Of a DNA stretch of 64,000 nt, positions 2,005 through 23,019 are shown piece after piece. The notes beneath the pieces were generated by a model, which was given only the letters and a program-made list of their open reading frames with translations, had not been told where the DNA came from and searched no databases. The stretch is taken from assembly GCA_020718085.1 (NCBI GenBank), contig DYDB01000001.1:47384-111383 (forward strand), in the 5' to 3' direction. The first letter of the stretch is position 1. Each line of letters begins with the position of its first letter. The position numbers were made by a program, and so were the translations under genes. This stretch comes from Micavibrio sp. (GTDB lineage Bacteria > Patescibacteriota > Minisyncoccia > Moranbacterales > GCA-2747515).

Positions 2005-3003
2005 ATGAAAAAAAATATCAAGAGAGTTTTCTATGCGCTTATTGTGATCTTCGTAGTCTTTTTTTTGTGGCAAAGATTTAGTGGAAAAACAAAGGATGCA
2101 CAACAAGAATCAATTGTCGTGGGAAAAGGTGCAGTTATGGAAACTGTGAGTGATAGTGGGGAGATTCAGCCAGTCTCATATGCCAATTTGTCTTTTGAAG
2201 TGCCAAGTGTGATCGAGTGGATCGGTGCGAATATTGGAGATGAAGTAAAAAAAGGACAGGTCATGATCCGGATCGATCGTGATCAATTGGGAGCACAAAT
2301 TCACAGTGCGCGCATTACTGTGGAAAAAGCAATTGCTGCAGAAGAGCTTGCACGACGTAAGTGGGATGATTATAAGCCGGAGCAAAAATACAGCATTCTT
2401 AAAGATGTAGAACAGGCGCGCGCGCAATTGGCAGCAACACGATCACAATGGACAAAAACTGAAATCGTATCACCAATTGATGGTATTGTTACACAGCAAG
2501 ACGGACGTGTGGGAGAGGTGGCGAGTGGCACCGTTATGCGTGTGATCGATCCTTCGGTCATGCACATTGAGGCATTTATGTCAGAGTCCGATGTGCCAAA
2601 GATGCATGTTGGTCAAGAGGCAAAGATCACATTTGACGCTTTTGATGATGAATTGTTTCGCGCAGAAATCGAGCAGATCGATCCAGAAGCTGTACAAATC
2701 CAAGACGTGACATATTATCGCACATTGCTCAAAATGGATCATGTGGAGGAACGTATGCGTCCAGGTATGAGCGTGGATGTGGATATTATCGTTGCACAAA
2801 AAGATGATGTTTTGGCAATTCCAATTCGATTTATGCGGTCGGATGACACGGGAGACTTTGTGTATATATCGGATGGAAAAGAAGGATATGCAAAACAATA
2901 TATTACACGTGGATTGGAAGGAGATAATGGTAACGTGGAGATCGTGAGCGGATTGCAAGAGGGACAAGAGATCTTTGCGATATATGATGAAGATAAAAAA
3001 TGA
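2005..3003 (+). CDS. HlyD/MacA-family periplasmic adaptor (membrane fusion protein)
   Basis: N-terminal TM anchor, coiled-coil region and lipoyl/beta-barrel segments. First gene of a three-gene ABC efflux unit. Confidence 0.7.
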   Translation: MKKNIKRVFYALIVIFVVFFLWQRFSGKTKDAQQESIVVGKGAVMETVSDSGEIQPVSYANLSFEVPSVIEWIGANIGDEVKKGQVMIRIDRDQLGAQIHSARITVEKAIAAEELARRKWDDYKPEQKYSILKDVEQARAQLAATRSQWTKTEIVSPIDGIVTQQDGRVGEVASGTVMRVIDPSVMHIEAFMSESDVPKMHVGQEAKITFDAFDDELFRAEIEQIDPEAVQIQDVTYYRTLLKMDHVEERMRPGMSVDVDIIVAQKDDVLAIPIRFMRSDDTGDFVYISDGKEGYAKQYITRGLEGDNGNVEIVSGLQEGQEIFAIYDEDKK

Positions 3004-3004
3004 T

Positions 3005-3784
3005 ATGGCACAAGAAGAGGTGATCATTGCATGTAAGAATTTGCAGAAGGTGTATGATATGGGTGAAACAAAAACACATGCACTTTGTGATGCGTCATGT
3101 GAGATTCGGCGTGGGGAGTTTGTGTCAATTATGGGACCAAGCGGATCTGGTAAGTCAACTTTGATGCATGTACTCAGTTTATTGGAGCGACCAACAGGCG
3201 GTTCGTATCTTTTTCGTGGGAAAGATGCATTGATCTTTGATGATGAAGAACTTGCGCGCATCCGTAATCAAGAAATTGGATTTGTGTTTCAATCTTTTAA
3301 TCTTTTATCGCGCGTAAGTGTGCTGGAGAATGTGGAATTGCCACTTTTGTATGATTTTTATAGTGATGACACGGCATCAGACAAAAAAACATTTCTCGGA
3401 AGATTATTAGGATCGACCGGAAAAAAAGAACGTGTTAAAAAAGCATTGGCGGATGTGGATATGTTACACAGGATCGACTTCATGCCGCACCAACTCTCCG
3501 GCGGAGAAAAACAGCGTGTGGCAATTGCACGTGCTCTTGTGAACAATCCGGATGTGATCTTTGCAGATGAGCCAACGGGCAATCTTGATTCTAAATCAGG
3601 AACGCAAGTTTTGCGCATCTTGCAACATTTGCATAAAAAGGGGCATACGATCATTTTGGTCACACATGAACATGCAACTGCTGAACATGCTGAAAGAATT
3701 TTGCGTATCAGTGATGGATGTATTGTGTCTGATGAAAAAGTTTCACAGAGGCGCTTTGCGGATGATGTTGTGCTTGTTAAATAA
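3005..3784 (+). CDS. ABC transporter ATP-binding protein (MacB/LolD-like)
   Basis: Walker [10 protein letters not shown], signature [15 protein letters not shown], Walker B IFADEPT, H-loop. ATG at 3005 abuts the adaptor stop. Confidence 0.85.
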
Positions 3785-3811
3785 TATACAAAAAACTGTT
3801 AGTATTTTTTT

Positions 3812-5059
3812 ATGATCCGTCAATTGCTTCTCTCACTTCGTATCACGTGGCAAAATTTTTTTGCGGCAAAGTTGCGCACATCTTTGACGGTTTTAGGTAT
3901 TGTTATTGGCATTGCTGCCATTTTGATCGTTATGAGCATCGGAGCGAGCGCACAAGATCTGATTCTTGGTCAAATTCGTGCTGTAGGATCGAATTTGATT
4001 GGTATTTTGCCAGGTGCATCGGAAGATGATGGTCCGCCGGCGAGTGCATTTGGTATTGTGATCACAACCCTTACAAATGATGACCTGGAGGCTTTGAGAA
4101 AAAAGAGTAATGTGCCACATGCGGTTGCAATTTCCGGTTATGTCACAGGTAACGCTATTGTCAAAAGTAAAAATTATACCAAATCACAAACGTTTCAAGG
4201 CGTCTCGGCAGATATGATCAATGTGGAAAACAACACAATTTCTACCGGACGTTTTTTTTCTGTTGCGGAAGATGAAAAAAATGCACACGTTGCCGTATTG
4301 GGAGCGACAATTGCAAAAGACATTTTTGATGATGCTGATCCTCTTGGTAAAAAAATCAAGATCGATGATCAAACATTTCGAGTTGTTGGCGTACTAAAGC
4401 CAAAGGGTTCATCATTGATCTCTAATTTTGACGAGATGATCTATATCCCACTTCAGGCTGCACAAAAAAATCTTTTGGGAATTGATCACTTGAATTTCAT
4501 TCGTTTACGTGTGGATAGTGAAGAACATATGGTACAAACAGAAAAAGATGTAGATGCGCTTTTACGATCAAGACATGATATTCCTGATGATGAAAATGGG
4601 GATTATTCCATACGCAATATGGCAAGCGCTTTGTCGATCATCAATAATGTAACCAACATTATGAAATATTTTCTTGCAGCAGTTGCTGCGGTCTCTTTGA
4701 TCGTCGGAGGAATTGGTGTGATGAACATCATGTTCATTGCACTATCACAACGTATTCGTGAAATTGGTTTACGCAAGGCAGTAGGCGCACGCAAAAGAGA
4801 TATTGTGACGCAATTCCTTTTTGAGTCCATGACCATTGCTTGTGTTGGAGGAATTGTTGGATTTTTAAGCGGTTTGGGTGTGGTGTATTTTGTAGGCTAT
4901 GTTGCACGCGTACAAGGTTATACATGGACGGTCTTTCTTTCGTGGAATATGGTCGTGATGGCATTGATCACATCAGCGATCTTGGGATTCTTTTTCGGCA
5001 TTTATCCGGCATGGAAAGCATCGAAAATCTCTCCAATGGAAGCATTACGTTACGAATAA
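3812..5059 (+). CDS. ABC transporter permease, FtsX/MacB type
   Basis: N-terminal TM, large periplasmic domain and C-terminal FtsX-like four-TM bundle (GGIGVMNIM...RIREIGLRKAVGA). Confidence 0.8.
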   Translation: MIRQLLLSLRITWQNFFAAKLRTSLTVLGIVIGIAAILIVMSIGASAQDLILGQIRAVGSNLIGILPGASEDDGPPASAFGIVITTLTNDDLEALRKKSNVPHAVAISGYVTGNAIVKSKNYTKSQTFQGVSADMINVENNTISTGRFFSVAEDEKNAHVAVLGATIAKDIFDDADPLGKKIKIDDQTFRVVGVLKPKGSSLISNFDEMIYIPLQAAQKNLLGIDHLNFIRLRVDSEEHMVQTEKDVDALLRSRHDIPDDENGDYSIRNMASALSIINNVTNIMKYFLAAVAAVSLIVGGIGVMNIMFIALSQRIREIGLRKAVGARKRDIVTQFLFESMTIACVGGIVGFLSGLGVVYFVGYVARVQGYTWTVFLSWNMVVMALITSAILGFFFGIYPAWKASKISPMEALRYE

Positions 5060-5064
5060 AAAAT

Positions 5065-6321
5065 ATGAATATCATTTCTCTTATTATTATTTCGGTCAAA
5101 AGTCTCTTTTCGCATAAGATGCGTACAGTTTTGACGCTTTTGGGTATTATTGTAAGTGTAATGGCGATCATGAGCGTGGTGACAATGGGTGAATCCTTTC
5201 AGTCATATGTGAGCGGTGAAATTGAGGCATTTGGCACCGACACGATCCAAGTAGAAACATCCCTTCCTGAAACGGAGCATGTATCTTCTGAGAATGCATC
5301 AAGCATGGCGATGGGCGTGCAAATTACTACGCTTACGGAAGATGATGCAGAGGCATTGGCGCAATTGCCAAATGTTGTAGCGTATAACACGGGACTTCTC
5401 GGACAGGCGCGGGCGAAGTATGATGATAAAAAAAGATATGTAACAATTTTGGGGTCTAGTGCTGATGCACTAGTTGTCGATCCTGGCGCTGAGATCGCAT
5501 ACGGAAGATTTTTTACAGAAGAAGAACATCGCACATCGGAAAATGTGATCGTTGTAGGTTCCACAGTTGCAGAAGCACTTTTTGATAAGGTGGGGGATGA
5601 AGTGATTGGAACACGCGTTACTCTCAATGATAATCGATATAAGGTGGTGGGTATTTTGAAAGAGCGTGGCGCTTCATTTGGATTTTCTTTTGATGATATG
5701 GTATATATGCCGCATACCACATTACAAAAAAAGATCTTGGGCATTGATTACTTGAGTTACATTACTTTTAAGGTGGGTGATGTGCAAACAATTGATCAAA
5801 CAGCAGAAAGTATGCGATGGATATTGCGCTCGCGTCATGAAATTGATACGCCAAGTGAGGATGATTTTTCTGTTATGACGATCATTGAAGCACAAGACAT
5901 GTTTGATACAATCCTTGGCGGTGTAAATATCTTACTTCTGGCTCTGGCTTCCATTTCTCTTTTGGTTGGTGGAATTGGAATTATGAATATTATGCTGGTG
6001 TCGATTGAAGAACGGCGCATGGAAATTGGTTTGCGGAAAGCTCTTGGTGCGCGTAAGCGAGACATCATCAAGCAGTTTGTGATCGAATCAATTGTGATCG
6101 CATGTGCAGGATCGATCATTGGCATTATTATCACCACAGTTCTTCTCTCCGCTGCATTTGCTGCGATTCGTTATGCAGGGTTTGATGACATTAATTTTTA
6201 TATTCCCACACGAGCAATACTTGTGGCGATGATCTTTTCTGTGTCATCAGGCATTATCTTTGGTGTATATCCGGCACGTCGTGCAGCGGCGATCTCACCC
6301 ATGCAAGCAATCTCCTCGTAA
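5065..6321 (+). CDS. ABC transporter permease, FtsX/MacB type (paralogue)
   Basis: Same architecture and motifs as 3812-5059 (GGIGIMNIM...RRMEIGLRKALGA). Start moved to the ATG at 5065, just after the stop of the upstream gene. Confidence 0.8.
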   Translation: MNIISLIIISVKSLFSHKMRTVLTLLGIIVSVMAIMSVVTMGESFQSYVSGEIEAFGTDTIQVETSLPETEHVSSENASSMAMGVQITTLTEDDAEALAQLPNVVAYNTGLLGQARAKYDDKKRYVTILGSSADALVVDPGAEIAYGRFFTEEEHRTSENVIVVGSTVAEALFDKVGDEVIGTRVTLNDNRYKVVGILKERGASFGFSFDDMVYMPHTTLQKKILGIDYLSYITFKVGDVQTIDQTAESMRWILRSRHEIDTPSEDDFSVMTIIEAQDMFDTILGGVNILLLALASISLLVGGIGIMNIMLVSIEERRMEIGLRKALGARKRDIIKQFVIESIVIACAGSIIGIIITTVLLSAAFAAIRYAGFDDINFYIPTRAILVAMIFSVSSGIIFGVYPARRAAAISPMQAISS

Positions 6322-6897: not shown

Positions 6898-7860
6898 ATG
6901 AACAGCAATCAACAAAAAAAGATCACTGTGATCATTCCTACATTTAATGTGGAGGATTTGATTGAGCAGGCAATTCGCTCTGTTTTATGGGCAGATGAGA
7001 TCTTTGTTGTGGACTCTTTTTCGACAGATCGTACAGTTGAGATCGCAAAAAAATATGGTGTGCGTGTTGTACAACATGAGTATGTGTACAGTGCAAAACA
7101 GAAAAACTGGGCAATTCCACAAGCAAAAAATGACTGGATACTTCTTCTTGATAGTGATGAGGTTGTAACAGATGAGCTTCGTGATACGATCCAACACATG
7201 CTTGCAACAAATAATATTGAATCATTTGATGGATTTGGTATTGCACGCAAACACTACTTTTTGGGAAAGTTCTTGCGATGGGGCGGACGATATCCATTGT
7301 ATAATATTCGATTATTCCGTAAGTCATGTCGCTATGAAGATCGCAATGTGCATGCACATATCATTCTTGCAAAAGATCGTATGAAAAATATTTCCGGAGA
7401 TATCTTGCACTATAGTGATCGATCATTGGAACAGTTTTTTGAGAAATTCAATCGATATTCCACATGGCAAGCAAACTACATGTTGCGTGTCTATGAACAT
7501 GGTATGACAAAGATCTCGTGGACAATGTTTTTGACAAATCCGTTTTATGCAAAGGCGATGATCAAAGACTTATGGACGTTTATTCCGTTGACGCCGCTCA
7601 TTCGCTTTGTATACATGTTCGTATTACGGTTAGGATTTTTGGATGGACGACACGGATTTATGATCGCATTCTTCTATGCATTTCAAGATTATGTTGCAAA
7701 AACCAAATATCTCGAGATGCGTAAAAAATCACCGAAGATGCGTCTCACATTCCAAAAGTATGTTGCAAAAAGTTGTGCATCACTCTGGCAATCACATAAA
7801 GGTTTTGGTAGCTATGTCGATAATGACTTCTCAATTAAAAGTAATAATGTAACCATATGA
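6898..7860 (+). CDS. Glycosyltransferase family 2
   Basis: N-terminal ITVIIPTFNVEDLIEQAIRSV...VVDSFSTDRT...LLDSDE (GT2 DxD-type signature). Confidence 0.75.
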   Translation: MNSNQQKKITVIIPTFNVEDLIEQAIRSVLWADEIFVVDSFSTDRTVEIAKKYGVRVVQHEYVYSAKQKNWAIPQAKNDWILLLDSDEVVTDELRDTIQHMLATNNIESFDGFGIARKHYFLGKFLRWGGRYPLYNIRLFRKSCRYEDRNVHAHIILAKDRMKNISGDILHYSDRSLEQFFEKFNRYSTWQANYMLRVYEHGMTKISWTMFLTNPFYAKAMIKDLWTFIPLTPLIRFVYMFVLRLGFLDGRHGFMIAFFYAFQDYVAKTKYLEMRKKSPKMRLTFQKYVAKSCASLWQSHKGFGSYVDNDFSIKSNNVTI

Positions 7861-8678
7861 ACCATATAACAATTACAGACATGATGTCACGATGGCGTAT
7901 GCTCTTGGTGTTCACAATTGTGTTTGGACTCATTGCATTCATTGTATCTGCACTGCTTCCTGCGAAGTATCAAAGTGACATACAAATGATCGTGATCCAA
8001 AAACAAGCGGATGACAAGGTGGACGCATTCAGTGCGACAAAGTCTGCAGAGTTCTTGAGCAATATTTTTGCACAAGCGATCTATACTACGTCGTTTTTCA
8101 ATAGCGTGCAGGATGCACCGTTTGATGTGCGACGCACATTTTCTCATGATCCGGAAAAACGTCAAAAAGAATGGGAAAAATTCATCAATGTAAAAAAAGT
8201 GAACAATACCGGTATTCTCAAGATCAGTGTATATGACGAATCTCGCAAAACAGCGGAAGAAACAGCAAAAGCGATCGCATATATTTTGACCACGAACAGT
8301 GAATCATATCATGGTGGTGGCGCGCGGGTGGAAGTGCGTTTGATCGACGGACCAAATACACCGCTTCGACCGACAGTGCCATATATTATTCCCAATACGA
8401 TCGTTGGTGCACTTGGCGGCATGATCATTGCAATGATACTTATCTATTTTTTCCCGGCAGTACAATTTAGTACGTCACATACGCCCATAGATCAATATGC
8501 GCAAGAAGTGGAAGAAATGATGGTATATGAGCCGACCACAGTTGTATTCGCACCGGAAGAAATGCAAGAAGATATCGTATCTGAACATTTCAATAAGGTG
8601 GGTGGGACGATCGAATTTGATCCTGAGGTGGAGGAACTTCACAAGCGGATCAGTGAATTTCGTACAACAAACGGTTAA
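7857..8678 (+). CDS. Wzz-like polysaccharide chain-length determinant (PCP family)
   Basis: N-terminal TM, central periplasmic segment and C-terminal TM (GALGGMIIAMILIYFF). Start overlaps the GT2 stop. Lies in a glycan-synthesis cluster. Confidence 0.55.
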   Translation: MNHITITDMMSRWRMLLVFTIVFGLIAFIVSALLPAKYQSDIQMIVIQKQADDKVDAFSATKSAEFLSNIFAQAIYTTSFFNSVQDAPFDVRRTFSHDPEKRQKEWEKFINVKKVNNTGILKISVYDESRKTAEETAKAIAYILTTNSESYHGGGARVEVRLIDGPNTPLRPTVPYIIPNTIVGALGGMIIAMILIYFFPAVQFSTSHTPIDQYAQEVEEMMVYEPTTVVFAPEEMQEDIVSEHFNKVGGTIEFDPEVEELHKRISEFRTTNG

Positions 8679-8863: not shown

Positions 8864-9628
8864 ATGAGAAAATTGATGGCAGTTCTGGTAGTCTTGGTGT
8901 CATGTGCATTTGCGTCAAATTCAATTGCGGCTGTGCACGTCTATGGAAAATTGGAAAGGGTAGCGGCAGTCGTTGTGTATCTTGAGGGTCAAGGTGCACA
9001 AGATGTTTATGCCCATCCCACATCAGAGGTCATGGGAACGTACAAAGGAAAGCCATGGCCCGGTGTCAATGTCGCGACAGTGGAAAGCAGTGATGGATCC
9101 CAGGGTATTTTCGTTCCGGTTTCCAACAGCGTGCTTAAGGAAGGATTGTGCGATGATCAAAAGACGCTTCTGCGAACTTTTGTTCCACCGCCAGCTCCAG
9201 CAAAAAAAGCTCCGGCAAAGAATCTCTATGCTGGTACAGTGCCTGCAAGTTCCATGCGTACCATTCAGAGCGGTGACTCATGTGATGAGCGCCAATTTTC
9301 TGGTATGGTAACAAAGGGAGCGCTCGAGGCATCAGGCGGACAAACCGTCGATGTACTTGAGCTTCATAGACGTGCCGGAAAATCCATGGAATACAAGGCC
9401 AAACGCTTGCGAGTAGATGCATCGTCCGGTATTGCCATTCCGATGGTATGGTCCTCAGACGGAAGCTGTGTACGAAAGTACTCCGAGCAGTCCTTGACTG
9501 AGTCAGAGTTACGGACGCTTCTTTCAACCTCCGAATCGTTGCGGTCTACGACTGTAAGTGATATTGGGCGAAAAAACTTCGGTGCACATCTCACCGAAGG
9601 GGTATATCTGATATATCCGACCAAATAA
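8864..9628 (+). CDS. Secreted protein of unknown function (signal peptide), paralogue of 9812-10249
   Basis: Strong RBS aaggaggg. Signal peptide MRKLMAVLVVLVSCAFASNSIAA. The C-terminal about 110 aa align with the downstream ORF (FSGMVTK...KAKRLRV...GIAxP). Local GC is higher. Confidence 0.6.
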   Translation: MRKLMAVLVVLVSCAFASNSIAAVHVYGKLERVAAVVVYLEGQGAQDVYAHPTSEVMGTYKGKPWPGVNVATVESSDGSQGIFVPVSNSVLKEGLCDDQKTLLRTFVPPPAPAKKAPAKNLYAGTVPASSMRTIQSGDSCDERQFSGMVTKGALEASGGQTVDVLELHRRAGKSMEYKAKRLRVDASSGIAIPMVWSSDGSCVRKYSEQSLTESELRTLLSTSESLRSTTVSDIGRKNFGAHLTEGVYLIYPTK

Positions 9629-9688
9629 GGTGTAAAAAAAGAGCATTGGTCCCCATGTGGATCCGTGCTCTTTTCCTTTTTTCAGCTC

Positions 9689-9717
9689 TTGACAGCGAAG
9701 TGTTTTTGGTATATAAT
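9689..9717 (+). promoter_or_regulatory. Consensus sigma70-type promoter (TTGACA-17-TATAAT)
   Basis: TTGACA at 9689-9694, a 17-nt spacer, and TATAAT at 9712-9717. Lies about 95 nt upstream of the 9812 start. Confidence 0.6.
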
Positions 9718-9811
9718 ACATGGTTCTATGGTGATCGCAGTTCTGTGACACTGAGAATAGGGAATGGTTGTTCTTATTAATAATCATCGAAATCCCAAGG
9801 AGGAAACTGCG

Positions 9812-10249
9812 ATGAAAAAGACCCTGGTGTTGCTGGTTGGGATGTGCGTAGCAGGTTGGGTGGCGAGCGCTTCTGCGGTGGACTTCGTGCAAACGGATGG
9901 AGCGATCTGTAAGGATCGCCCGTTCTCAGGCATGGTCACCAAGGCTGTGCTTGAAGTCGGTCCTTCCGATGCAATCGAAGTGATCGATCGCGGCGCAGAG
10001 TTCAAGAAGCCGGCCGCACGCTTCAAGGCCAAGCGTATCCGAATTGAAGAGGACGGCATTGCGTATCCGCTCATGGATAGCAATGACAAAAAATGCGTCG
10101 CCACAACCGCATCTGCGATGTTTGAAGAGCGAGAAGTGGAAGCCGGACTTCTCATGCCTGGCGAAAAGCTTCGTGCCCTAAGCGTCACGGATGAAGGTCG
10201 CAACAAGATCGGCGAATACAAGACGGTCCAGGTCTGGATCATCGAGTAA
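9812..10249 (+). CDS. Small secreted protein of unknown function, paralogue of 8864-9628
   Basis: RBS aaggagg. Signal peptide MKKTLVLLVGMCVAGWVASASA. Shares the Cys-bracketed domain with the upstream ORF. Confidence 0.6.
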   Translation: MKKTLVLLVGMCVAGWVASASAVDFVQTDGAICKDRPFSGMVTKAVLEVGPSDAIEVIDRGAEFKKPAARFKAKRIRIEEDGIAYPLMDSNDKKCVATTASAMFEEREVEAGLLMPGEKLRALSVTDEGRNKIGEYKTVQVWIIE

Positions 10250-10261
10250 GCGCCGGTAACA

Positions 10262-10310
10262 AGGGTGTTGCAAGAATGCTATAATGGCAAACTTGCAACA
10301 CCCTTTTTTC
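10262..10310 (+). terminator. Rho-independent terminator
   Basis: agggtgttgcaag...cttgcaacaccct: a 13-bp perfect stem followed by TTTTTT. Confidence 0.8.
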
Positions 10311-10371
10311 ATTATAAAATATATCTATTTATCTTTTTTCAAACAGTAAGTAATGATCTAATAACATACAT

Positions 10372-10480
10372 GTCTTTGCGAGGAGCGGAACGAAATATAG
10401 CGACGAAGCAACCTTTGGTCATTGTATAAAAATATAACATATTAGTATGGGATTGCTTCGTTGTCTCTCCTCGCAAAGAC
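10372..10480. repeat. MITE-like repeat, family A (TIR gtctttgcgaggag...acgaagcaa / ttgcttcgt...ctcctcgcaaagac)
   Basis: A 109-bp element with about 30-bp terminal inverted repeats. Related copies lie at 49047-49204 and 58552-58649. Confidence 0.6.
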
Positions 10481-10631
10481 AACTAGATGAAAAGTTTTTT
10501 GGACTGCCACGAATACAAGTTATCCTTGCAGAGACAAAAAGGCGTCTTCGCGAAGTCGCTTTGCGACTGTGGCGAACTAGAGAACTTACATCATTTCACA
10601 TTTTGTACGTTAAATGCACTATCGAAATTGA

Positions 10632-10660
10632 TTGACAAAATATGAAAAATATGATATAAT
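10632..10660 (+). promoter_or_regulatory. Consensus sigma70-type promoter (TTGACA-17-TATAAT)
   Basis: TTGACA at 10632-10637, a 17-nt spacer, and TATAAT at 10655-10660. Lies about 135 nt upstream of the lipoprotein gene. Confidence 0.65.
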
Positions 10661-10797
10661 TGCAAGTTATGTGAATAGTTGTGTATAAAGATCAAAAACG
10701 CTTCTGTGCATAAGAATTTGTGCCCACAAGCGTGATCTTTATCAAAGATCACATGAGGTTTGTAAACTTAAAAATTTAGCCAATGGAGGTTGGTGAT

Positions 10798-11787
10798 ATG
10801 AGATACTACGTTATGTATGTGTTCTGTTGTCTCGTATTGTTGTCCGGTTGTGCCGCTGGAAACCAGGGTAAGGTGCCCAGTTTTGCAATGGTGCAGGGAG
10901 AACAAGGTGTTGCTCTGCCGCATCCCGATGCGGTGGAAGATAAAAACAAGGGGGAGACGCTCGTAACATTTACGGCGATCATTCCACCAGAATTTATTGT
11001 TGAAACACGGGGAACGCTCAAATCCGTGTATCCACTGGTGGGTGCACATATGAGTGATCCGAGCAAAAAGATCGAGGACGGCTTCTGCTATATTGAGGGA
11101 AGTAAAGCACTCTACAAAAATCCGTGGGGACTTATTCCCGCGGTATGTACTGTGACTGGTACAAAGAAGCAATTCGAGAAGTACCGTTGGACAATTGTCA
11201 ATCAAGATGGTGGTGTGTGGGCGACTTCGCCAACAGCAACCGCGATGATCGACGACAAGCAGTGGGACTTCATGAAATTCGAAAATGATTTCACACATCG
11301 CACGGAAGTTTTGACCAAGGTTGGTGATACTCTTTATGAGATCAACGAGTTCTGGAAGGAACGGTACCGTGAACTTGGGCAAGTTCCCAAGAACGATGTA
11401 TATGAGATCGTGATCGATCCTAAAAACCCAAAATGGCAAGCATATCGTGAGAAGCTTATCAAAGAGATGGGTTTTTCGATTGCATTGCCAAACGGTGAGC
11501 CTGTCGTGTCGACGGTTGACCGTGACAAGATGGTTGAGATCCTTGCTGAAGTACCACGTGTGACAAAATGGCAGAAGATGGTGTCACATTTGGGCGTGTC
11601 AATTGGCACGCCGGAGGTCATGGCGATCTCTGCTGCAAGCAGCATATTAAACGGCGGTATAGCTGCGTTGTTCGACAACCAGCTTTATACAAATACGGCC
11701 AGAGGTCTCGCACAGCGACGTGATTTTGCGCCGCATATGAGATTTTGGTACGATGAAGTTCAACAAGCAATGAGGAGCAGACAATGA
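10798..11787 (+). CDS. Lipoprotein of unknown function
   Basis: RBS ggagg. Signal peptide with lipobox LLSGC. Stop overlaps the start of the next ORF (ATGA). Confidence 0.6.
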   Translation: MRYYVMYVFCCLVLLSGCAAGNQGKVPSFAMVQGEQGVALPHPDAVEDKNKGETLVTFTAIIPPEFIVETRGTLKSVYPLVGAHMSDPSKKIEDGFCYIEGSKALYKNPWGLIPAVCTVTGTKKQFEKYRWTIVNQDGGVWATSPTATAMIDDKQWDFMKFENDFTHRTEVLTKVGDTLYEINEFWKERYRELGQVPKNDVYEIVIDPKNPKWQAYREKLIKEMGFSIALPNGEPVVSTVDRDKMVEILAEVPRVTKWQKMVSHLGVSIGTPEVMAISAASSILNGGIAALFDNQLYTNTARGLAQRRDFAPHMRFWYDEVQQAMRSRQ

Positions 11788-13181
11788 GAACACGAACTTT
11801 TCTATCGGCATTGTTGCTTTGTGTTGTGGGTGCTGTTAGTGCCTTCGCACAGAGCGGATCTGACACGTTGGGACTTTCTTCCAATGTTGTTTCAACACTC
11901 AACAAGTCTTCCGTATGTGCCACTGTGGTGCAGACGGGAGAGAAAATCACCTTTGCCAATGTTGGCGGGGTGAAAGTCGGCAAAACCGATAGTGGTATCT
12001 GGATGCAATTTATCGCATTCCAAGACAAACTCCCGTTCAAAGGAGCAAATGCCATTATCGCAAAAGGTGGAAACATTGAGCGCAAGGTTGTAGATGTCAT
12101 GCCCTGTGAAGGAAATGCATCAATTGCAATCGCATCAATGACCACCGAACCGGCACGCATTGCGCGACCGAATCGCCGAGTTGCGGAGGAGTTATCTGCA
12201 GCGCAAACCCAAAATGTGGGAGCGCAACGGCAGATCATGCCAAAAGCACTTCCGCAAGGCGTGGAAGAGGTTGAGCGTGAAGTTGCAAAACTTTTCCCGC
12301 AAGATGAAGTTGTAGAAGATAGTGGTCCAAAACCGGTCGTCGCTTACGATAGTAAGAACGCCGCCGGTGAAGGATCTGTCTTTGACAATCTGGACGCAAA
12401 GGTTACAGTTACACGCATGGGTTCCATGAGTGGCAGTGATCGCAAGCGTGATGGGAAAAGCATTACTGTTGAAGGTACGTATTATCAACCGGCGTGGGAT
12501 GGTAAGGGTCGCATAGGCGCCCATGCCACTTACACCAATGGCGAAAGTAATAGCAAAAACCCCGCCAATGGTCGTACAACAAATACAGATTATTGGAAGG
12601 TTGGCGCTGGTGGTGTATCTGAGTATGAGTTTGCCCCCAATACAGATTTCGTTGTAGAGGGTGATCTGCTCTATCAGGACACCAAGAGTCGTATTCCAGC
12701 AAAAAATTTCCGCTCCCATCAAACGGAGTGGCAAGCAGATCTCGATCTGTCGATTGCCAGCGATGACAATCGGAAAAATGGCTATGCCTTATTTCCGTAT
12801 TGGGAAGTCGGTGCCAGGGCAATCAAGTCATTCGGTGTGGATTATTCCGACACCAGCAATAAGAATGACTGGTATGATAACAGTCGCTACAGCGTCTACG
12901 GTAATGTGGATCTCTATGATTTCCATGCTGGAGATGTATGGCGATTCACTCCAACTGCCGGTTTGGAAGGTGGGTACATGGTTGGGAAAAGTGCTTCTTT
13001 CATAGAGCCTGGACTCAGCATCAAAACCGCCTACAAAGGCAAAGAGATCCTCGAGACGGGTGTTGACTGGCGATTCCTCTCCGGAGATAATCGTTGGAAC
13101 GCATTTGGTACGATCAGACCACTGCGCATTGGACGCATTCTGTGGGCCGAAGGCACCGCAGATTACGAATCAAAACGTTAA
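11784..13181 (+). CDS. Secreted beta-rich protein (outer-membrane beta-barrel-like), function unknown
   Basis: Signal peptide ...AVSAFAQS. The C-terminal half is rich in alternating aromatic/Gly residues (YxY, WxV). Translationally coupled to the lipoprotein. Confidence 0.5.
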   Translation: MRTRTFLSALLLCVVGAVSAFAQSGSDTLGLSSNVVSTLNKSSVCATVVQTGEKITFANVGGVKVGKTDSGIWMQFIAFQDKLPFKGANAIIAKGGNIERKVVDVMPCEGNASIAIASMTTEPARIARPNRRVAEELSAAQTQNVGAQRQIMPKALPQGVEEVEREVAKLFPQDEVVEDSGPKPVVAYDSKNAAGEGSVFDNLDAKVTVTRMGSMSGSDRKRDGKSITVEGTYYQPAWDGKGRIGAHATYTNGESNSKNPANGRTTNTDYWKVGAGGVSEYEFAPNTDFVVEGDLLYQDTKSRIPAKNFRSHQTEWQADLDLSIASDDNRKNGYALFPYWEVGARAIKSFGVDYSDTSNKNDWYDNSRYSVYGNVDLYDFHAGDVWRFTPTAGLEGGYMVGKSASFIEPGLSIKTAYKGKEILETGVDWRFLSGDNRWNAFGTIRPLRIGRILWAEGTADYESKR

Positions 13182-13200
13182 GTAAAGACAAACCTCAACC

Positions 13201-13245
13201 GAAGCCGTGTAAACTTATAATAGTTTACACGGCTTCTTTCTTTTG
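13201..13245 (+). terminator. Rho-independent terminator
   Basis: gaagccgtgtaaact/tataat/agtttacacggcttc: a 15-bp perfect stem followed by tttcttttg. Confidence 0.85.
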
Positions 13246-13284
13246 TAGCGAAAAATTGATAAGATGAATGTGTGAGAGTCAATT

Positions 13285-13402: not shown

Positions 13403-13942
13403 GTGAAGAAAAAAATACTTTTAATTTCAGGTACGATCTTTGCACTTGTGTGTACAATGTATGCGGTCTTTTTGATGTGTGCTGCGAGTGTGGAGTATGG
13501 GATATTTCTTATACAAGAAGAACAATCGGATCATTATATAAAGATGCATGAAAAGATAAAACGTGTGGACATGCTGATGCAAAAAGAAATACCAGCATCT
13601 CTTGTAGTGATACAGACATCCAAAAAAATTTCAAACAGTGAAAAGATCACTATTATGGAGCAATTGCGCACCCTGGAGGAAGTTGCGGCGGAAATTGAGC
13701 GGGAAACAATGTACTATGATGAAGATAATACCGTACACATGTTCTTTCCACCGGAGGGGCGTACGGTAACGTATTTTCAGGAAGCGCGTAATACGCCACT
13801 GTATATTTCTCGGTGTGTACGAAGTATGGAGCAGGCGATCTTTGCAACTACTCTTGTCAAAGATCAAAAAAACATCGTACAGGAAAACATGATGTTGCTA
13901 CAAGAAGAATTGCGACGTTTGTCAGTGATATCAAATTATTAG
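13403..13942 (+). CDS. Hypothetical membrane-anchored protein
   Basis: 179-aa ORF with an N-terminal TM helix. No recognisable motifs. Confidence 0.45.
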   Translation: MKKKILLISGTIFALVCTMYAVFLMCAASVEYGIFLIQEEQSDHYIKMHEKIKRVDMLMQKEIPASLVVIQTSKKISNSEKITIMEQLRTLEEVAAEIERETMYYDEDNTVHMFFPPEGRTVTYFQEARNTPLYISRCVRSMEQAIFATTLVKDQKNIVQENMMLLQEELRRLSVISNY

Positions 13943-14076: not shown

Positions 14077-15447
14077 CTAAAGAAGGTGTCTATTTTTAGT
14101 TGTTCCATAACAGGAAAGTGCACAAGCAACAAGTGTCCATAAAAACCACTGCACTGCAGTACCGCGCCAAATATTTGAGCTCATACCAAAACCGATTTGC
14201 GCGATAAAAAGCAAAATGATCACAAGGACGAAGAGTCGTTCGTTACTCAATGGAAGTGATCGGTAAGTTCTGATGAGGTGTACAAGTGTCATGCCCAAAA
14301 GAAATGTGAAAAGTCCAAAACCGATAAGGCCGGTTTCCTGCAGCACTTTGATCATGTCATTGTGCGTATAGGGATTGCCTGCATAATAGCCTTGTTCTTT
14401 TTCAAATATGGCAATCTCTGTTCCGGCGCCATAGCCAAATGTTGGGGAAAGTTGCCATGCGGCAATGGCATTTTTCCATTGTTGTATACGCCAGCGAATT
14501 GAGCTGTCTGCCGGAGGGTTGTAGATCTCTTCGATGCGATCATGCACGGTTTGTGATGCAAAGAACAATGCAACGGCAATGGCACATGTGATAAAAAGGA
14601 TCTTTGGTGCACGGAGGAGACTGAACAGTGCAAAAAATAATATAAAAGCAAACCATCCACCACGACTGAATGTCAAAAGCAAAATAGTGATCGTGATCAG
14701 TAAAAGTGCAATTGTGGCATTGCGATTTTGCAATTGAGCGAACTTTTCGAATGAACGATATGTGAGCAGAGCAACAATGATCAAAAGAAATGAAGCAAAC
14801 GAATTAGGGTGTTTAAATGTGCCAAAAAGACGACCTTCTGTGCCGGTGTTGTCGCTGTATCCTGTGCTTGTGGCAAGTTGAAAGATCGCAAAAATGAGAG
14901 GGAGGATCGATGCGATGATAACGGACGTGAGGATCGTTGTGCGTGCGTGCGGCATTTTTTCACAAAGTATGTATGCGCTGAAAAATGCGGCAAATATACT
15001 GATGAGTCGCAATGTTTCCTGAAATGTTGCTCCCTTGTCGATTGAATAAAATACGCTGATAGCGGAAAATAAAATGAAGAGTCCAAAAGAGACGATGAGC
15101 GGTTTGTGGGAAAGTTTGGTGTAATTTGTTATAATGAGCGCAGTGCTCATGATGATGAGCATGATGCCCAGAATTGCGGCAATATTGAGTGTAACAGTTT
15201 CGGAAAGCGAAACGGAAAAAAAACTATCCAGAAAATCTACAGATGCACGCATGGTGAGCAATGCAATAAAACCCCACAAGGGTTTGTAAAAGAAGATTGT
15301 GGTGATCAGGTAAAGTATGGCCATGCCGCCCGTGACGACAGCAGGTAAAAGAAAAGAGATGTGCAAGATCAAGATCACAACAAAACCAATGATGAGAATG
15401 ATCCCTGTTGTTTTATGTGATATGATCGAGAGATCACTGCTTTTCAT
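14077..15447 (-). CDS. O-antigen ligase/polymerase family membrane protein (Wzy/WaaL-like)
   Basis: More than 10 predicted TM helices. A periplasmic loop carries SRGGWFAFILF, the typical O-antigen ligase signature. Confidence 0.7.
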   Translation of the reverse strand: MKSSDLSIISHKTTGIILIIGFVVILILHISFLLPAVVTGGMAILYLITTIFFYKPLWGFIALLTMRASVDFLDSFFSVSLSETVTLNIAAILGIMLIIMSTALIITNYTKLSHKPLIVSFGLFILFSAISVFYSIDKGATFQETLRLISIFAAFFSAYILCEKMPHARTTILTSVIIASILPLIFAIFQLATSTGYSDNTGTEGRLFGTFKHPNSFASFLLIIVALLTYRSFEKFAQLQNRNATIALLLITITILLLTFSRGGWFAFILFFALFSLLRAPKILFITCAIAVALFFASQTVHDRIEEIYNPPADSSIRWRIQQWKNAIAAWQLSPTFGYGAGTEIAIFEKEQGYYAGNPYTHNDMIKVLQETGLIGFGLFTFLLGMTLVHLIRTYRSLPLSNERLFVLVIILLFIAQIGFGMSSNIWRGTAVQWFLWTLVACALSCYGTTKNRHLL

Positions 15448-15512: not shown

Positions 15513-16781
15513 ATGAAAATTTTACAAATACATAAATATTATAGTAGAAAGCGCGGTGGCGGATCAGTCTCGGCTTTTTTTGAAACCAAAGAATTACTTG
15601 AATCCATGGGGCATGAAGTGATGGTTTTTTCCATGCATGATGCGGACAATGAATATGCGCGAGAAAGTGCATTTTTTGCAGCACATTTTGATATTCGCAC
15701 CGCCAAAGGCATGTGGCAAAAAATGCGTCTTTTGCCGCGTGTTCTGTACAATCGTGAGGCGATGCAAAAATTGGATCTGTTGCTCCAAAAGAAAAAGCCG
15801 GATGTTGCACATGTGCACAACATTTATCATTATTTGACGCCGGGTATTTTTCGCGTGCTCAAGAAACATCATATCCCGATCGTCTTTAAATTATCGGATT
15901 ACCATGCAATTTGCCCAAATTATAAATTGTTCTCACATGGCAAGATTGATCATTCGTGTAAAAATGGATCATATTATAAGTTATTTTTCAATCGATCGAT
16001 CGGAAACTCATGGAGTGAGAGTTTTGTGGGCATGATCGAGGGGTATGTGAATAAGTGGTGCAAATTTTATCAAAATGTTGATGTATTTACAGCGCCGAGT
16101 GAGTTTATGCGCGACTTGTGTGTGACGTATGGCGTGCCAAAAAAGAAGATCCATATTTTGCGCAACGTATTGAATTTTCACGCATATCCTACACACACTG
16201 TACAAAAAGATCATTTTTTTCTTTATATGGGGCGCATTGCCGAAGAAAAAGGTTTACCGGTTCTGATCGCTGCAATGAAAATACTCAAGGATAAAAATGT
16301 TCTGGGTGAGTGGCGATGTGTGATTGCCGGGAAAGGACCGGAAGAAGAACGTCTGCGTTTGCTAGTGCACAGTGAAGATCTTGAAGATGTAGTAAACTTT
16401 TCGGGATTTTATCCCAAAGGAAGTCATGAATGGTTTGCACTTATGCAGAGAGCAGCTGTCGCTGTGTTACCATCTGTGTGGTATGATAATTCACCGATTG
16501 CAATTTCAGAATCCATGGCCTGTGCAACCCCTGTTATCGTCTCTGATGCTGGAGGTACGAAGGAAATGATCCAAGATGGAGAAAGTGGTTTGATATTCCA
16601 CTCTGAAGACAGTGAGGACCTTGCACAAAAAATGCAACAATTTATCGATGATCCGTCGCTATGTGATCGCATGGGTGCAGAGGCACGAGAACGTGTTTTT
16701 GTGATCAATAATGAAAAAAATTATTACACGCAGCTGATGCAAATTTATCATGCGGCCATTCACAAAAACACACATGAATAA
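15513..16781 (+). CDS. Glycosyltransferase family 4 (GT-B fold)
   Basis: C-terminal EX7E-type region (EEKGLPVLIAAMKIL...PSVWYDNSPIAISESMACATPVIVSDAGGTKEMI). Confidence 0.8.
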   Translation: MKILQIHKYYSRKRGGGSVSAFFETKELLESMGHEVMVFSMHDADNEYARESAFFAAHFDIRTAKGMWQKMRLLPRVLYNREAMQKLDLLLQKKKPDVAHVHNIYHYLTPGIFRVLKKHHIPIVFKLSDYHAICPNYKLFSHGKIDHSCKNGSYYKLFFNRSIGNSWSESFVGMIEGYVNKWCKFYQNVDVFTAPSEFMRDLCVTYGVPKKKIHILRNVLNFHAYPTHTVQKDHFFLYMGRIAEEKGLPVLIAAMKILKDKNVLGEWRCVIAGKGPEEERLRLLVHSEDLEDVVNFSGFYPKGSHEWFALMQRAAVAVLPSVWYDNSPIAISESMACATPVIVSDAGGTKEMIQDGESGLIFHSEDSEDLAQKMQQFIDDPSLCDRMGAEARERVFVINNEKNYYTQLMQIYHAAIHKNTHE

Positions 16782-16785
16782 CTTT

Positions 16786-18078
16786 ATGACAAAAAAAAAT
16801 ATACGCAAAGTCGCTGATATGGCACATCAGGTCATGATTGGCGGAAAGGCGGGGGAGCGCACAATGCGATTTGCGAAAGATCTTTCCATCACACTTTTGG
16901 GAGGATTGGGCGCTTTTGTTTTGCTATTTGTGGCAAATATTGTGGTAGCACGTGTTTTGGGGCCGGAAGAATATGGAAGATACGCTGTTTTTTTTGCGAT
17001 CGCGCAGGTCGTATCCTTGCTCTATGTACTAGAGCTTGATGTGTCTGCTCTCTATTTTCTTGCAAGTAAAGATATTCACAAGAAAGAGATCACAGCATCG
17101 ATCATGATGATGTTCGGGATCAACATTGTGGTTTTTACATTTTTGGCATGGAGTGCTTTTTATTTTTTCAATTTTACACAAGTGACACAAAATGTTCTTG
17201 TGGGTGCGTTGGGATTTGCGATCGTGCTTTCCGTGAAGCGTATGATCGATGCGTTCTTGCGTGCAGATGAACAATTTATGCATCAAGCATTTTTACGTTT
17301 AGGAGAAGGTGTGGTGGTCATTGTGACTCTGGGTGTTTTTTTAGGGTTGTTGGTGCAACGAACTTTTGTGAGCTATGCAGGTTCATTAGTTATTGGAGGT
17401 GTGATATTTTCGATCATTGGCAGTATGTACATACGACATTTTTTTACAGTCAGAGGATGGACCGCGAAACGTATGAACGATATCTTTCGATATAACATTT
17501 TTGGACTTATAAATGCGATCATCAATGGTATTGTGAAAAATGCGGATACATTAGTGATTGCCGCAGTACTTGGTACGAAAACAGCGGGTATTTATGCCAT
17601 TTATTTTACTGCATCGGTTGTGATCGGTGCACGTGTGACACAATTGTTCATCAATGTTTTTTTTCCATCGATACGTACGCATGTAGATCAGATACAGAAT
17701 GTGATCCGCAAAGTGGATCGTATGTTTGTACGCATGTTCTTGCCACTTGTATTTTGTGCAAGCTGTGGTGTTGCCGTGATCATTTTATTGTATGGTGATG
17801 CATATCCGTTCATGTGGCAGTGGATTGTGTTAGGGGGCATATATATAGCTGTGCATTTCTTTGCATCATTGTATGGATGGATCCTATCCAGCATGTCACA
17901 AAAAGGGTACAAGCAATACAACCAATCGTACATGTATGGTTTTATCGTTTATGCGGGTATTATTGCGGGAACATATTACATGCATGCATTGACGATCGTC
18001 ACGTTTTTGATCGCACTTATTTTTTATCGCATTATGGGAGGTGCTGTAGCATATTTATATGTGAAGCAAAAGATCTAG
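16786..18078 (+). CDS. Polysaccharide biosynthesis protein / Wzx-like flippase (MOP superfamily)
   Basis: About 12 TM helices throughout and a glycan-cluster context. The start is uncertain; I chose an internal Met after the GT4 stop. Confidence 0.6.
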   Translation: MTKKNIRKVADMAHQVMIGGKAGERTMRFAKDLSITLLGGLGAFVLLFVANIVVARVLGPEEYGRYAVFFAIAQVVSLLYVLELDVSALYFLASKDIHKKEITASIMMMFGINIVVFTFLAWSAFYFFNFTQVTQNVLVGALGFAIVLSVKRMIDAFLRADEQFMHQAFLRLGEGVVVIVTLGVFLGLLVQRTFVSYAGSLVIGGVIFSIIGSMYIRHFFTVRGWTAKRMNDIFRYNIFGLINAIINGIVKNADTLVIAAVLGTKTAGIYAIYFTASVVIGARVTQLFINVFFPSIRTHVDQIQNVIRKVDRMFVRMFLPLVFCASCGVAVIILLYGDAYPFMWQWIVLGGIYIAVHFFASLYGWILSSMSQKGYKQYNQSYMYGFIVYAGIIAGTYYMHALTIVTFLIALIFYRIMGGAVAYLYVKQKI

Positions 18079-22681: not shown

Positions 22682-22754
22682 GCCACTTTAGCTCAGTTGG
22701 TAGAGCATCGGTTTTGTAAACCGCAGGTCGTCAGTTCGAGTCTGACAAGTGGCT
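22682..22754 (+). tRNA. tRNA-Thr (anticodon UGU)
   Basis: Cloverleaf folded by hand: acceptor gccactt/aagtggc, anticodon loop tttgtaa with U33-UGU-A37, short variable loop, T-loop ttcgagt. CCA is not encoded. Confidence 0.75.
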
Positions 22755-22951: not shown

Positions 22952-23019
22952 CAATACAACCAAGAGAGCGGATGTGGCCGATTACTGTAAAGTGTCGGCT
23001 TTATCTGTAAAAGGCATAT

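Follow-up and report, generated by a model that had tools for sequence, protein, structure and literature searches.

What are the closest described relatives, in architecture, of a lipoprotein encoded together with a secreted barrel-like protein in a surface-glycan cluster? In the Gfc/Yjb operons of the E. coli group-4 capsule, GfcA is secreted, GfcB is a lipoprotein, GfcC is periplasmic, and GfcD is a barrel. Among 12- to 14-stranded barrels, the EspP/Hbp autotransporter beta-domains (PF03797), CymA, and NanC/KdgM are the closest known systems. In Terrabacteria diderms, the OmpM/SlpA proteins, like the toga proteins of Thermotoga, have a module that binds peptidoglycan at the N-terminus and a barrel at the C-terminus, joined by a linker, and are abundant in the outermost layer (PMC10628300). 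EpsY/EpsX, a composite OPX/beta-barrel translocon, joins a Wza-class-3 protein to a PgaA-like porin, the two being paired within a Wzx/Wzy cluster (PMC9601211, PMC9603273); OPX proteins are defined by a Poly_export domain plus at least one SLBB domain (PMC9603273).

We analyzed such a pair in a 64-kb stretch (the window) of the Moranbacteria contig DYDB01000001.1 (assembly GCA_020718085.1), and all window counts are limited to these 64 kb. The best RpsB matches are Candidatus Moraniibacteriota, a CPR lineage, in agreement with the CPR-like host suggested by the original prediction for this DNA. CPR bacteria are regarded either as monoderms or as lineages in which the outer membrane was lost, and are reported to be without outer-membrane markers. 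A barrel-type protein is therefore unexpected in this host, as that prediction had pointed out for a monoderm, and neither a membrane to hold it nor an insertase for it is known. The pair and its neighbors are organized as follows.

6898-7860: GT2 gene, upstream in the cassette
7857-8678, plus strand: short Wzz/PCP-like chain-length determinant, 273 aa (Pfam Wzz, 27.1 bits)
8864-9628, plus strand: secreted 254-aa protein with a conserved C-terminal domain of ~125 aa; no Pfam match
9689-10249, plus strand: another exact consensus promoter (9689-9717), with the gene for a secreted protein paralogous to the 254-aa one
10632-10660, plus strand: sigma-70 promoter, exact TTGACA-17-TATAAT, consensus hexamers with extended -10 TG
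10667-10797, plus strand: 5' UTR of ~130 nt, its start inferred from the -10 element
10798-11787, plus strand: lipoprotein gene, 329 aa, signal peptide and LLSG/C lipobox, orphan family
11784-13181, plus strand: gene for the 465-aa secreted partner; an ATGA overlap couples its translation to that of the lipoprotein gene
11853-12113, plus strand: the beta domain at its N-terminus (residues ~24-110), where the model is most confident, with C45 and C108
12114-12368, plus strand: its variable linker (residues ~111-195), charged and Pro/Ala/Gln-rich, gapped or absent in relatives
12369-13178, plus strand: its conserved C-terminal domain (residues ~196-465), predicted as a porin-like barrel of ~12 long antiparallel strands with a short conserved tail
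13201-13246, plus strand: intrinsic terminator, a 15-bp stem and 6-nt loop (13201-13236) followed by a T-rich tail
13403-13942, plus strand: 179-aa protein with a hydrophobic N-terminal stretch, by inspection a probable membrane anchor
14077-15447, minus strand: Wzy_C-family protein of the O-antigen polymerase, ligase, or O-oligosaccharyltransferase type (Pfam Wzy_C, 5.9e-22)
15513-16781, plus strand: GT4 glycosyltransferase, cassette neighbor
16750-18078, plus strand: Wzx-type flippase (Polysacc_synt), cassette neighbor

The lipoprotein and the secreted beta-rich protein are encoded by a bicistronic operon, and related loci have kept its promoter and terminator. The promoter claimed by the original prediction lies where it was placed, with the -35 element TTGACA at 10632-10637, a 17-nt spacer, the -10 element TATAAT at 10655-10660, and the extended -10 TG at 10652-10653. 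Exact TTGACA-N17-TATAAT sites occur three times in the window against 0.02 expected from shuffles, and two of the three, at 9689 and 10632, fall inside the cassette. Among the related loci (designated L001, L083, and so on), the operon promoter is identical in L001 and retains 11 of 12 positions in L083, L084, L085, and L089. Between the -35 element and the start codon, the window and L001 are roughly 95% identical, as counted from the alignment, and the sequence diverges upstream of the -35 element. The 5' UTR folds into a long hairpin (10667-10756) followed by a small hairpin carrying the GGAGG Shine-Dalgarno sequence (10785-10789) in its loop, with a minimum free energy of -36.6 kcal/mol (z = -3.7). 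In L083, L084, L085, and L090 the UTR is about as long and also contains a long hairpin, though its sequence differs, and four pairs show compensatory changes; an Rfam search of the UTR matched no known RNA. The best start of the lipoprotein gene is ATG 10798, 8 nt 3' of GGAGG, and its stop codon TGA (11785-11787) overlaps the ATG at 11784 that opens the second gene, as predicted. Likewise, the 15-bp stem claimed for the terminator was found at 13201-13236, and a stem-loop with a T-rich tract was seen by eye 3' of the beta-protein gene in most folded loci, including L001, L083 to L085, L088, L089, and L090. Consensus hexamers, a 17-nt spacer, and a hairpin with a T-tract thus identify a sigma-70 promoter and an intrinsic terminator at the level of sequence prediction.

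How widespread is the pair? An exhaustive HMM search of 1.84 billion proteins recovered only 40 representative clusters of the beta-protein family, and all named members belong to Candidatus Moranbacteria/Moraniibacteriota. Both families are confined to Moranbacteria-type contigs in the searches run. Neither was present at ~80 rpsB loci drawn from Moraniibacteriota, from further Patescibacteria, and from outside that phylum, and a GTDB genome scan with the 465-aa protein gave no match. One JGI metagenome scan (A5) yielded three loci, two of them with the whole cassette, and another (A1) yielded no match. A lipoprotein homolog lies directly upstream of the beta-protein gene in 12 of 12 independent loci, down to ~25% identity, and synteny with prfA, rpmE, rpsB, and tsf is kept in five of the loci (the window, L001, L083, L084, and L090) and partly in L085. 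The two families would be worth defining as new protein families.

The original prediction had also noted the raised GC of this block and had suggested that the barrel-type protein might be cargo from a diderm donor. The compositional observation stands: GC is 0.48-0.50 over 9-10 kb and 11-13 kb against ~0.41, and GC3 there is 0.44-0.63 against ~0.38 for most other genes. A rise in GC and GC3 across the genes of 8.9-13.2 kb is what a newly acquired foreign block would display. However, orthologous cassettes show this excess too, in hosts with a GC of 33-42%, and its level follows that of the host. A recent foreign origin of the block is therefore unsupported, and we rejected recent horizontal transfer as the cause of the excess. 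No homolog was found outside Moranbacteria-type contigs among the 1.84 billion representatives, and both the retained housekeeping synteny and the cassette synteny down to ~25% identity argue against importation as well. We consider a recent diderm origin extremely improbable.

The lipoprotein is present where the original prediction placed it. Its N-terminus is MRYYVMYVFCCLVLLSG/C, and by inspection the sequence VLLSG/C at residues 14-18 fits the lipobox pattern [LVI][ASTVI][GAS]C. Similarly, the motifs LSGC, LGGC, LVGC, MSGC, FSC, AAGC, and LLGC were read by inspection in the 11 homologs whose N-termini were read. A hydrophobic stretch of small residues near the C-terminus (residues ~268-292) is conserved. 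The lipoprotein matched nothing in Pfam, NCBIfam, or the PDB, and a profile search against the PDB and Pfam returned noise.

The partner begins with MRTRTFLSALLLCVVGAVSAFA/QSG, by inspection a Sec signal peptide as had been predicted. Cysteines C45 and C108 of the N-terminal domain are invariant in a five-sequence alignment, and in 16 of 41 relatives LysM domains take the position of this domain; Pfam finds no LysM in the window protein itself. The C-terminal 270 aa contain no Cys and are 11% Gly and 13% F+W+Y; the original prediction had described an alternating aromatic/glycine pattern in the C-terminal half. The protein ends in ...GTADYESKR, also as predicted, and is without a C-terminal aromatic beta-signal; most relatives end in varied polar tails. 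Searches of the 465-aa protein against Pfam, NCBIfam, and PDB sequences returned no match.

What fold does the C-terminal domain adopt? The AlphaFold model, built on a three-sequence alignment, is of low confidence (mean pLDDT 43.5), and a single-sequence model (pLDDT 31) was unusable. Residues 31-70 reach 72-78, the part of the N-terminal domain beyond them 54-65, the linker 22-34, and the predicted strands 33-68 per 10-residue block. In the model the strands of the C-terminal domain are 13-20 residues long and follow a strict up-down meander with short turns, and two structure-comparison methods gave only transmembrane barrels among the matches listed, with no sandwich, propeller, or beta-helix; the Foldseek matches include the intimin beta-domain (4e1s). 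This low-confidence model suggests an outer-membrane-type barrel rather than a beta-sandwich; the original prediction had raised the barrel first and had named a surface-layer or adhesin beta-sandwich as an alternative. At the sequence level, neither the single protein nor two C-terminal-domain profiles matched a barrel among PDB sequences, and the full-family profile matched only LysM. Neither the window protein nor its relatives reached a curated threshold for outer-membrane beta-barrel models: the best score of the relatives against Autotransporter (PF03797) was 21.5 bits against a gathering cut-off of 26, in 2 of 41 members, and OMP_b-brl_2 matched in relatives at E = 0.021. When both C-terminal-domain profiles were compared by hhalign with the beta-domain of E. 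coli Ag43, the probability was 0.2-0.3, which does not support homology to autotransporters, although the single-sequence template was weak.

S-layer genes often have long structured UTRs of the kind found here and lie beside their own glycan clusters. The barrel prediction might thus be an artefact, and the partner a soluble, wall-associated, beta-rich surface protein (an S-layer subunit, adhesin, or lectin with a beta-sandwich or beta-helix fold) held by LysM or the N-terminal domain and possibly glycosylated by the Wzy_C-type enzyme, the lipoprotein serving as membrane anchor or maturation factor. The low pLDDT and the absence of sequence homology to solved barrels are in keeping with such a protein, as is a host considered monoderm; LysM joined to a surface domain is a common architecture of monoderm wall proteins, and a strong promoter with a stabilizing 5' hairpin would suit a major surface protein. 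However, the long strands in a strict meander, the exclusively transmembrane-barrel matches listed by both structure comparisons, and the weak Pfam matches of the family, all of which are to membrane-barrel families, point the other way, and we regard a soluble protein as somewhat unlikely.

The pair is embedded in genes for a surface glycan. Wzx, Wzy_C, Wzz, GT4, and GT2 are encoded together, as in a Wzx/Wzy-dependent glycan cluster; no initiating phosphoglycosyl transferase was identified in the 64-kb window. Wzz and/or Wzy_C/GT4 genes occur within ~5 kb of the pair in 11 of 12 loci: the Wzz gene adjoins the pair in most loci, and the Wzy_C gene is next to it in 11 of 12. In L089 the pair is present without glycan genes nearby. 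The gene for the 179-aa protein lies downstream of the beta-protein gene in eight loci, and the paralog of the 254-aa protein has a likely start at ATG 9812 (146 aa) and a GC3 of 0.63.

Like EpsY/EpsX, the Moranbacteria pair comprises an extracytoplasmic partner gene and a gene for a predicted barrel set together inside a Wzx/Wzy cluster. Were it a true outer-membrane polysaccharide export translocon of this type, with the lipoprotein in a periplasmic, OPX-like position and the barrel as outer-membrane conduit for the Wzx/Wzy polymer, these Moranbacteria would have a lipid outer membrane. Several differences make this rather improbable. Poly_export (PF02563) and SLBB (PF10531), which define OPX proteins, are absent from all 11 lipoprotein homologs searched, even at E <= 1; the predicted barrel has ~12 strands rather than 16-18, against 18 for the composite translocon; and the Wzz protein is short, its best NCBIfam match being the CspC family (TIGR01006), under that model's cut-off. 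Furthermore, CPR bacteria are reported to be without outer-membrane markers, and the Omp85, POTRA, Lpt, TolC, and OmpA families were seen neither among the scanned ORFs of the 64-kb window nor among the Pfam matches tabulated for related loci. An upstream ABC system considered as a Lol lipoprotein-sorting system proved to be MacB-like (240 bits versus 52 for LolCE) and is thus not evidence for an outer membrane.

CPR bacteria are commonly episymbionts. The barrel-like protein is secreted, has no evident membrane to reside in, and belongs to a strongly lineage-specific module. It could be imagined as a pore that the epibiotic cell delivers into the envelope of its host, either to take up nutrients or to attack, while the lipoprotein would act as its chaperone or provide immunity. 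Against this, the pair consistently lies within the glycan and envelope cluster of the cell itself, the LysM domains suggest binding of its own peptidoglycan, and no toxin-like or secretion-system-like genes were found near the pair. A host-directed pore is in our estimation very unlikely.

We tentatively favor the proposal that the two genes form an envelope module specific to the Moranbacteria clade, whose products are probably abundant and act together with the glycan cluster. The conserved operon anatomy, the constant adjacency of the two genes, their position, in almost all loci, between Wzz and Wzy_C, the orphan status of both families, LysM in 16 of 41 relatives, and the short Wzz with CspC as its best NCBIfam match support it. 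The single operon encodes a lipid-anchored lipoprotein and a Sec-secreted partner. The conserved C-terminal ~270 aa of the partner would fold as a porin-like antiparallel beta-barrel of ~12 strands, and its variable N-terminal domain, probably a disulfide-bonded beta domain here and LysM in many relatives, would keep the protein bound to the cell wall. From its anchor at the outward side of the cytoplasmic membrane, the lipoprotein may assemble or tether the barrel partner. The two would be an abundant component of the envelope's outermost layer, and the glycan made by the flanking genes may be passed through, attached to, or displayed on that layer.

The low pLDDT, the lack of profile similarity to solved barrels and to the Ag43 beta-domain, the Autotransporter scores below the gathering cut-off, the missing aromatic beta-signal, the host regarded as monoderm, the outer-membrane biogenesis genes not seen in the scanned window ORFs or related loci, and locus L089 are points against the envelope-module proposal.

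The envelopes of CPR/Patescibacteria are essentially uncharacterized, and models of how diderms became monoderms assume that these bacteria are monoderm. The pair offers a conserved, probably abundant, lineage-restricted handle on the outermost layer of CPR cells. If the barrel is real, either it functions in the absence of BAM and of a classical outer membrane, or an outer layer has been kept or re-invented in some CPR bacteria. A bolder extension, which we judge unlikely, is that some Moranbacteria are not simple monoderms and carry an outer layer of barrel protein, either a lipid outer membrane or a toga-like sheath, that is tethered to peptidoglycan through LysM or the N-terminal domain, assembled by the lipoprotein rather than by BAM, and coupled in its biogenesis to the surface glycan. 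This would represent independent or relict outer-layer biogenesis in a clade thought to be without an outer membrane. Should the partner prove not to be a barrel, the two proteins would still be candidates for a major surface antigen or scaffold in a clade that has not been cultured.

Finally, how does the envelope module compare with the other known systems? Of the 12- to 14-stranded outer-membrane barrels, none has a family model that scores above its threshold, and the profile searches gave no similarity to solved barrels; the window protein has neither a C-terminal aromatic signal nor a passenger, and comes from a lineage considered to have no outer membrane. As in intimin and invasin, many relatives consist of a signal peptide, LysM, a linker, and a barrel-like domain. 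However, the family has no C-terminal passenger, only a tail of 20-60 aa, its Pfam matches include no inverse-autotransporter barrel family, and the window protein carries a Cys-containing N-terminal domain in place of LysM; the combination of LysM, inverse-autotransporter barrel, and passenger that marks inverse autotransporters is thus incomplete. Like the Gfc/Yjb operons, the cassette sets small secreted proteins, a lipoprotein, and a predicted barrel protein beside polysaccharide assembly genes, but gene order and sizes differ and YjbF, GfcC, and YjbH are not among the Pfam matches of the cassette. With OmpM/SlpA and the toga the module appears to share the logic of wall-binding module, linker, and barrel, a likeness of architecture only. 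The N-terminal SLH domain that tethers OmpM/SlpA had no match in any of the 41 family members; the tether here would be LysM or an uncharacterized domain, the predicted barrel is much smaller, and OmpM does not have the obligate lipoprotein partner seen here. In function, the pair would resemble the wall-tethered barrels of atypical envelopes, OmpM/SlpA-like or toga-like, rather than a classical proteobacterial porin, and it also resembles loci in which a surface-protein gene lies beside its glycan-assembly cluster.

What does the genomic company of the lipoprotein and beta-protein genes say about their role? The gene neighbourhood is the strongest result of our analysis. We compared 12 independent loci (the window and the related loci L001, L083-L086, L088-L092 and L094/L095), whose proteins range from 86% to ~25% identical. 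The lipoprotein homolog lies directly 5' of the beta-protein gene in every one, overlapping it or no more than 20 nt away, and in L091 the pair is interrupted by a small LysM gene. A lipobox is present in all lipoprotein homologs whose N-termini were read. With the exception of L089, every locus also encodes a short Wzz-like and/or Wzy_C-family protein with a GT4 glycosyltransferase within ~5 kb of the pair (11 of 12). The closer relatives keep the complete order of GT2, Wzz, secreted protein(s), lipoprotein, beta-protein, a small protein whose N-terminal stretch is hydrophobic, Wzy_C on the opposite strand, GT4, Wzx, pilins, prfA, rpmE and rpsB; in L086 and L088 the pair sits on the other side of GT2-Wzz, still inside the cluster. 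For the Wzz, a short protein, the top NCBIfam match is to the CspC family, below that model's cut-off. The conserved adjacency thus marks the pair as the core unit, and the conserved context indicates that it became linked to a Wzx/Wzy-type glycan pathway early in the history of the clade.

The sequence features named in the original prediction (promoter, lipoprotein ORF, overlap, 465-aa ORF, terminator and GC) were all found in the window; the list below also gives the 5' UTR and an upstream ABC system:

2005-6321: MacA-like adaptor, ABC ATPase and two MacB-type permeases
10632-10660: promoter, TTGACA (10632-10637), 17-nt spacer, TATAAT (10655-10660), with an extended -10 TG upstream of TATAAT
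10667-10797: operon 5' UTR
10798-11787, plus strand: lipoprotein ORF, 329 aa, best start ATG 10798, 8 nt 3' of GGAGG, N-terminus MRYYVMYVFCCLVLLSG followed by C
11784-13181, plus strand: 465-aa beta-protein ORF, its ATG (11784) overlapped by the lipoprotein TGA stop
13201-13236: terminator with a 15-bp stem, 3' of the 465-aa ORF

The 465-aa protein begins with a typical Sec signal peptide (…AVSAFA/QSG) and ends in …GTADYESKR. Exact TTGACA-N17-TATAAT sites occur three times in the window versus 0.02 predicted from dinucleotide shuffles, and two of the three, at 9689 and 10632, fall within this gene cassette. The third (40687-40715) lies upstream of a 312-aa ORF (40792-41730) that by eye resembles a polytopic membrane protein and has no Pfam match. 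From the -35 to the start codon the window and L001 are ~95% identical by our own count from the alignment (proteins 84-86% identical), and upstream of the -35 they diverge; the promoters of L083, L084, L085 and L089 are of the TTGACA-17-TAnAAT type, matching at 11 of 12 positions. Folding of the ~130-nt 5' UTR gives a long hairpin at its 5' end (-36.6 kcal/mol, z = -3.7), and UTRs of similar length form comparable hairpins from different sequences in L083 (9867-10000), L084 (3911-4037), L085 (2435-2562) and L090 (4227-4359). In each UTR a small hairpin follows, with the Shine-Dalgarno GGAGG in its loop and compensatory changes present, and a GTGATC…GATCAC element is retained; no Rfam family matches the 5' UTR. 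Among the other loci folded, most show by eye a stem-loop and then a T-rich tract 3' of the beta-protein gene. Genes whose surface-protein mRNAs are very abundant, S-layer genes among them, typically combine a consensus promoter with a stabilising 5' hairpin.

GC content is elevated as predicted, at 9-10 and 11-13 kb (0.48-0.50 versus ~0.41), and GC3 in the four secreted-protein genes is 0.44-0.63 versus ~0.38 for most other genes. The highest value among the genes measured (0.63; likewise highest in L001, 0.65) belongs to a ~146-aa secreted protein, a paralog of the C-terminal domain of a 254-aa protein, that is preceded by the second exact promoter (9689-10249 unit). The original prediction offered cargo from a diderm donor as one explanation. 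Recent acquisition of this kind is not supported, because orthologous cassettes in relatives (loci of 33-42% GC) show this GC excess too, scaling with the host value, because synteny with ribosomal genes is kept, and because among the 1.84 billion representatives searched homologs turned up only in Moranbacteria-type contigs; horizontal transfer is largely excluded. The secreted-protein genes lie 5-10 GC points over their neighbours in the window (8864-13181), L001, L083, L084 and L091, and ribosomal genes do not. Simple expression-linked codon bias does not explain this, since rpsB and tsf are not GC-richer. Elsewhere in the window, GC drops to 0.31 over 25000-27200, where a pentapeptide-repeat protein (26540-27109) and a HEPN_AbiU2 protein (25746-26384) are encoded; this trough, which may represent a small islet of defence or mobile genes, lies beside a tRNA cluster (22682-23245; Thr-TGT, Tyr-GTA, Thr-GGT, Trp-CCA), 3' of which are a small RelA/SpoT-like synthetase (23369-23998) and RsgA.

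Both proteins lack matches in Pfam, in NCBIfam and among PDB sequences. When 5.8 billion proteins were searched with a word index, two relatives of the 465-aa protein and six of the lipoprotein came up, and an HMM search run exhaustively over 1.84 billion cluster representatives with a 3-sequence profile found 40 beta-protein family members at E <= 1e-3. All source-named members (MDZ7612157.1, MCX6765837.1, MFO7807088.1) are Candidatus Moranbacteria/Moraniibacteriota; neither family has been described before, and both are confined to a single CPR lineage. The beta-proteins share the C-terminal ~270 residues (window residues ~195-465), while their N-terminal parts vary: LysM domains, which bind peptidoglycan, occur in this part in 16 of 41 members, and the window protein has instead a ~85-residue beta domain with two invariant cysteines, then a low-complexity linker. 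In L090 (5383-6937) the gene has become two, an ORF of 190 aa for the N-domain and one of 326 aa for the C-terminal domain, and both encode a signal peptide; therefore the two domains can function as separate polypeptides. An 11-sequence alignment of the lipoprotein reveals invariant polar residues (H42-P43-D44, E69, D137, E162, D164, R168, E203, E273) and, ahead of a basic tail, a hydrophobic stretch of small residues that is likewise conserved, …TPEVMAFGAASSILNGGIAA…; these features could belong to an active site and/or form a helix that interacts with the membrane. The lipoprotein profile gave no informative match in PDB or Pfam.

Is the conserved C-terminal domain a barrel, as originally suggested? 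Single-sequence AlphaFold was uninformative (pLDDT 31), and the model from a 3-sequence alignment is of low confidence (mean pLDDT 43.5; by 10-residue block, 72-78 at N-domain residues 31-70 and 33-68 over the modelled C-terminal strands). It contains ~12 long antiparallel strands (residues 204-446), and structure comparison matched it to Fiu, PorV, FadL, PgaA, PelB, OmpG and autotransporter beta-domains; Foldseek matches of this low-confidence model include AaaA, EspP and Hbp (E = 4e-5 to 1e-3), as well as CymA, NanC/KdgM and the intimin beta-domain. Weaker pointers, independent of the model, are period-2 hydrophobicity of the family alignment in excess of column shuffles (z = 3.7), a composition of 11% Gly and 13% aromatic residues with no Cys, and weak Pfam matches of relatives to membrane-barrel families only: Autotransporter in two members (best E = 2.8e-5, 21.5 bits, under the cut-off of 26) and OMP_b-brl_2 (best E = 0.021). 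Against a barrel count the lack of PDB matches to C-terminal-domain profiles, a negative hhalign comparison with the E. coli Ag43 beta-domain, and the absence of a C-terminal aromatic signal. One main rival explanation is that the barrel prediction is wrong and the protein is a soluble, wall-bound surface protein. On balance a closed porin-like barrel is fairly probable; the sequence comparisons established no homology to a known barrel family. Such a barrel might also be a host-directed pore, another main rival.

The host is a CPR/Patescibacteria bacterium, because the closest RpsB sequences among 185,579 species representatives come from Candidatus Moraniibacteriota and Parcubacteria MAGs (best 75% identity). 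In its housekeeping genes (DnaE, ThrRS, GatB, RpsB, Tsf, PrfA, NusG, L1) the window is typical of a streamlined bacterium, and it encodes type IV pilins. It also holds an AdoMet-decarboxylase/spermidine-synthase fusion (375 aa) directly followed by a second spermidine-synthase gene (36904-38803); a SET-domain protein (41842-42372) adjoining a 30% GC ORF without assigned function (42373-43134) and a histidine kinase, all within 41842-44791; a PAS-GGDEF protein (27868-29613); and a ThyX-like protein (49549-50589) whose Thy1 match is confined to residues 191-320, its N-terminal ~190 aa having no Pfam match. Published work regards CPR bacteria as monoderms or as lineages that have lost their outer membrane (PMC8871954; PMC10160955; bioRxiv 10.1101/2021.05.31.446380). 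The third main rival is that the pair forms a true translocon for polysaccharide in an outer membrane, on the pattern of EpsY/EpsX (PMC9601211). The available sequence showed no gene for outer-membrane biogenesis, and this, together with the short Wzz, its CspC-family match and the MacB-like ABC system, agrees with a cell that lacks a classical outer membrane. That ABC system, upstream of the cassette and kept only in the closest relative, L001, was rejected as Lol (240 bits for MacB versus 52 for LolCDE).

Our reading of the operon is that it encodes an envelope module specific to the clade. We propose that the lipoprotein, anchored on the cytoplasmic membrane, would work with a secreted partner whose N-terminal part binds the wall and whose C-terminal part is a porin-like barrel, and that the two, jointly with the Wzx/Wzy glycan machinery encoded alongside, may construct or decorate the outermost layer. 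Membership in the wall-tethered barrel systems and in the lipoprotein-barrel systems of polysaccharide export failed in every test run; it is in architecture that the module is like both the wall-tethered barrels (OmpM/SlpA and the intimin translocation unit) and the lipoprotein-barrel pairs of polysaccharide export.
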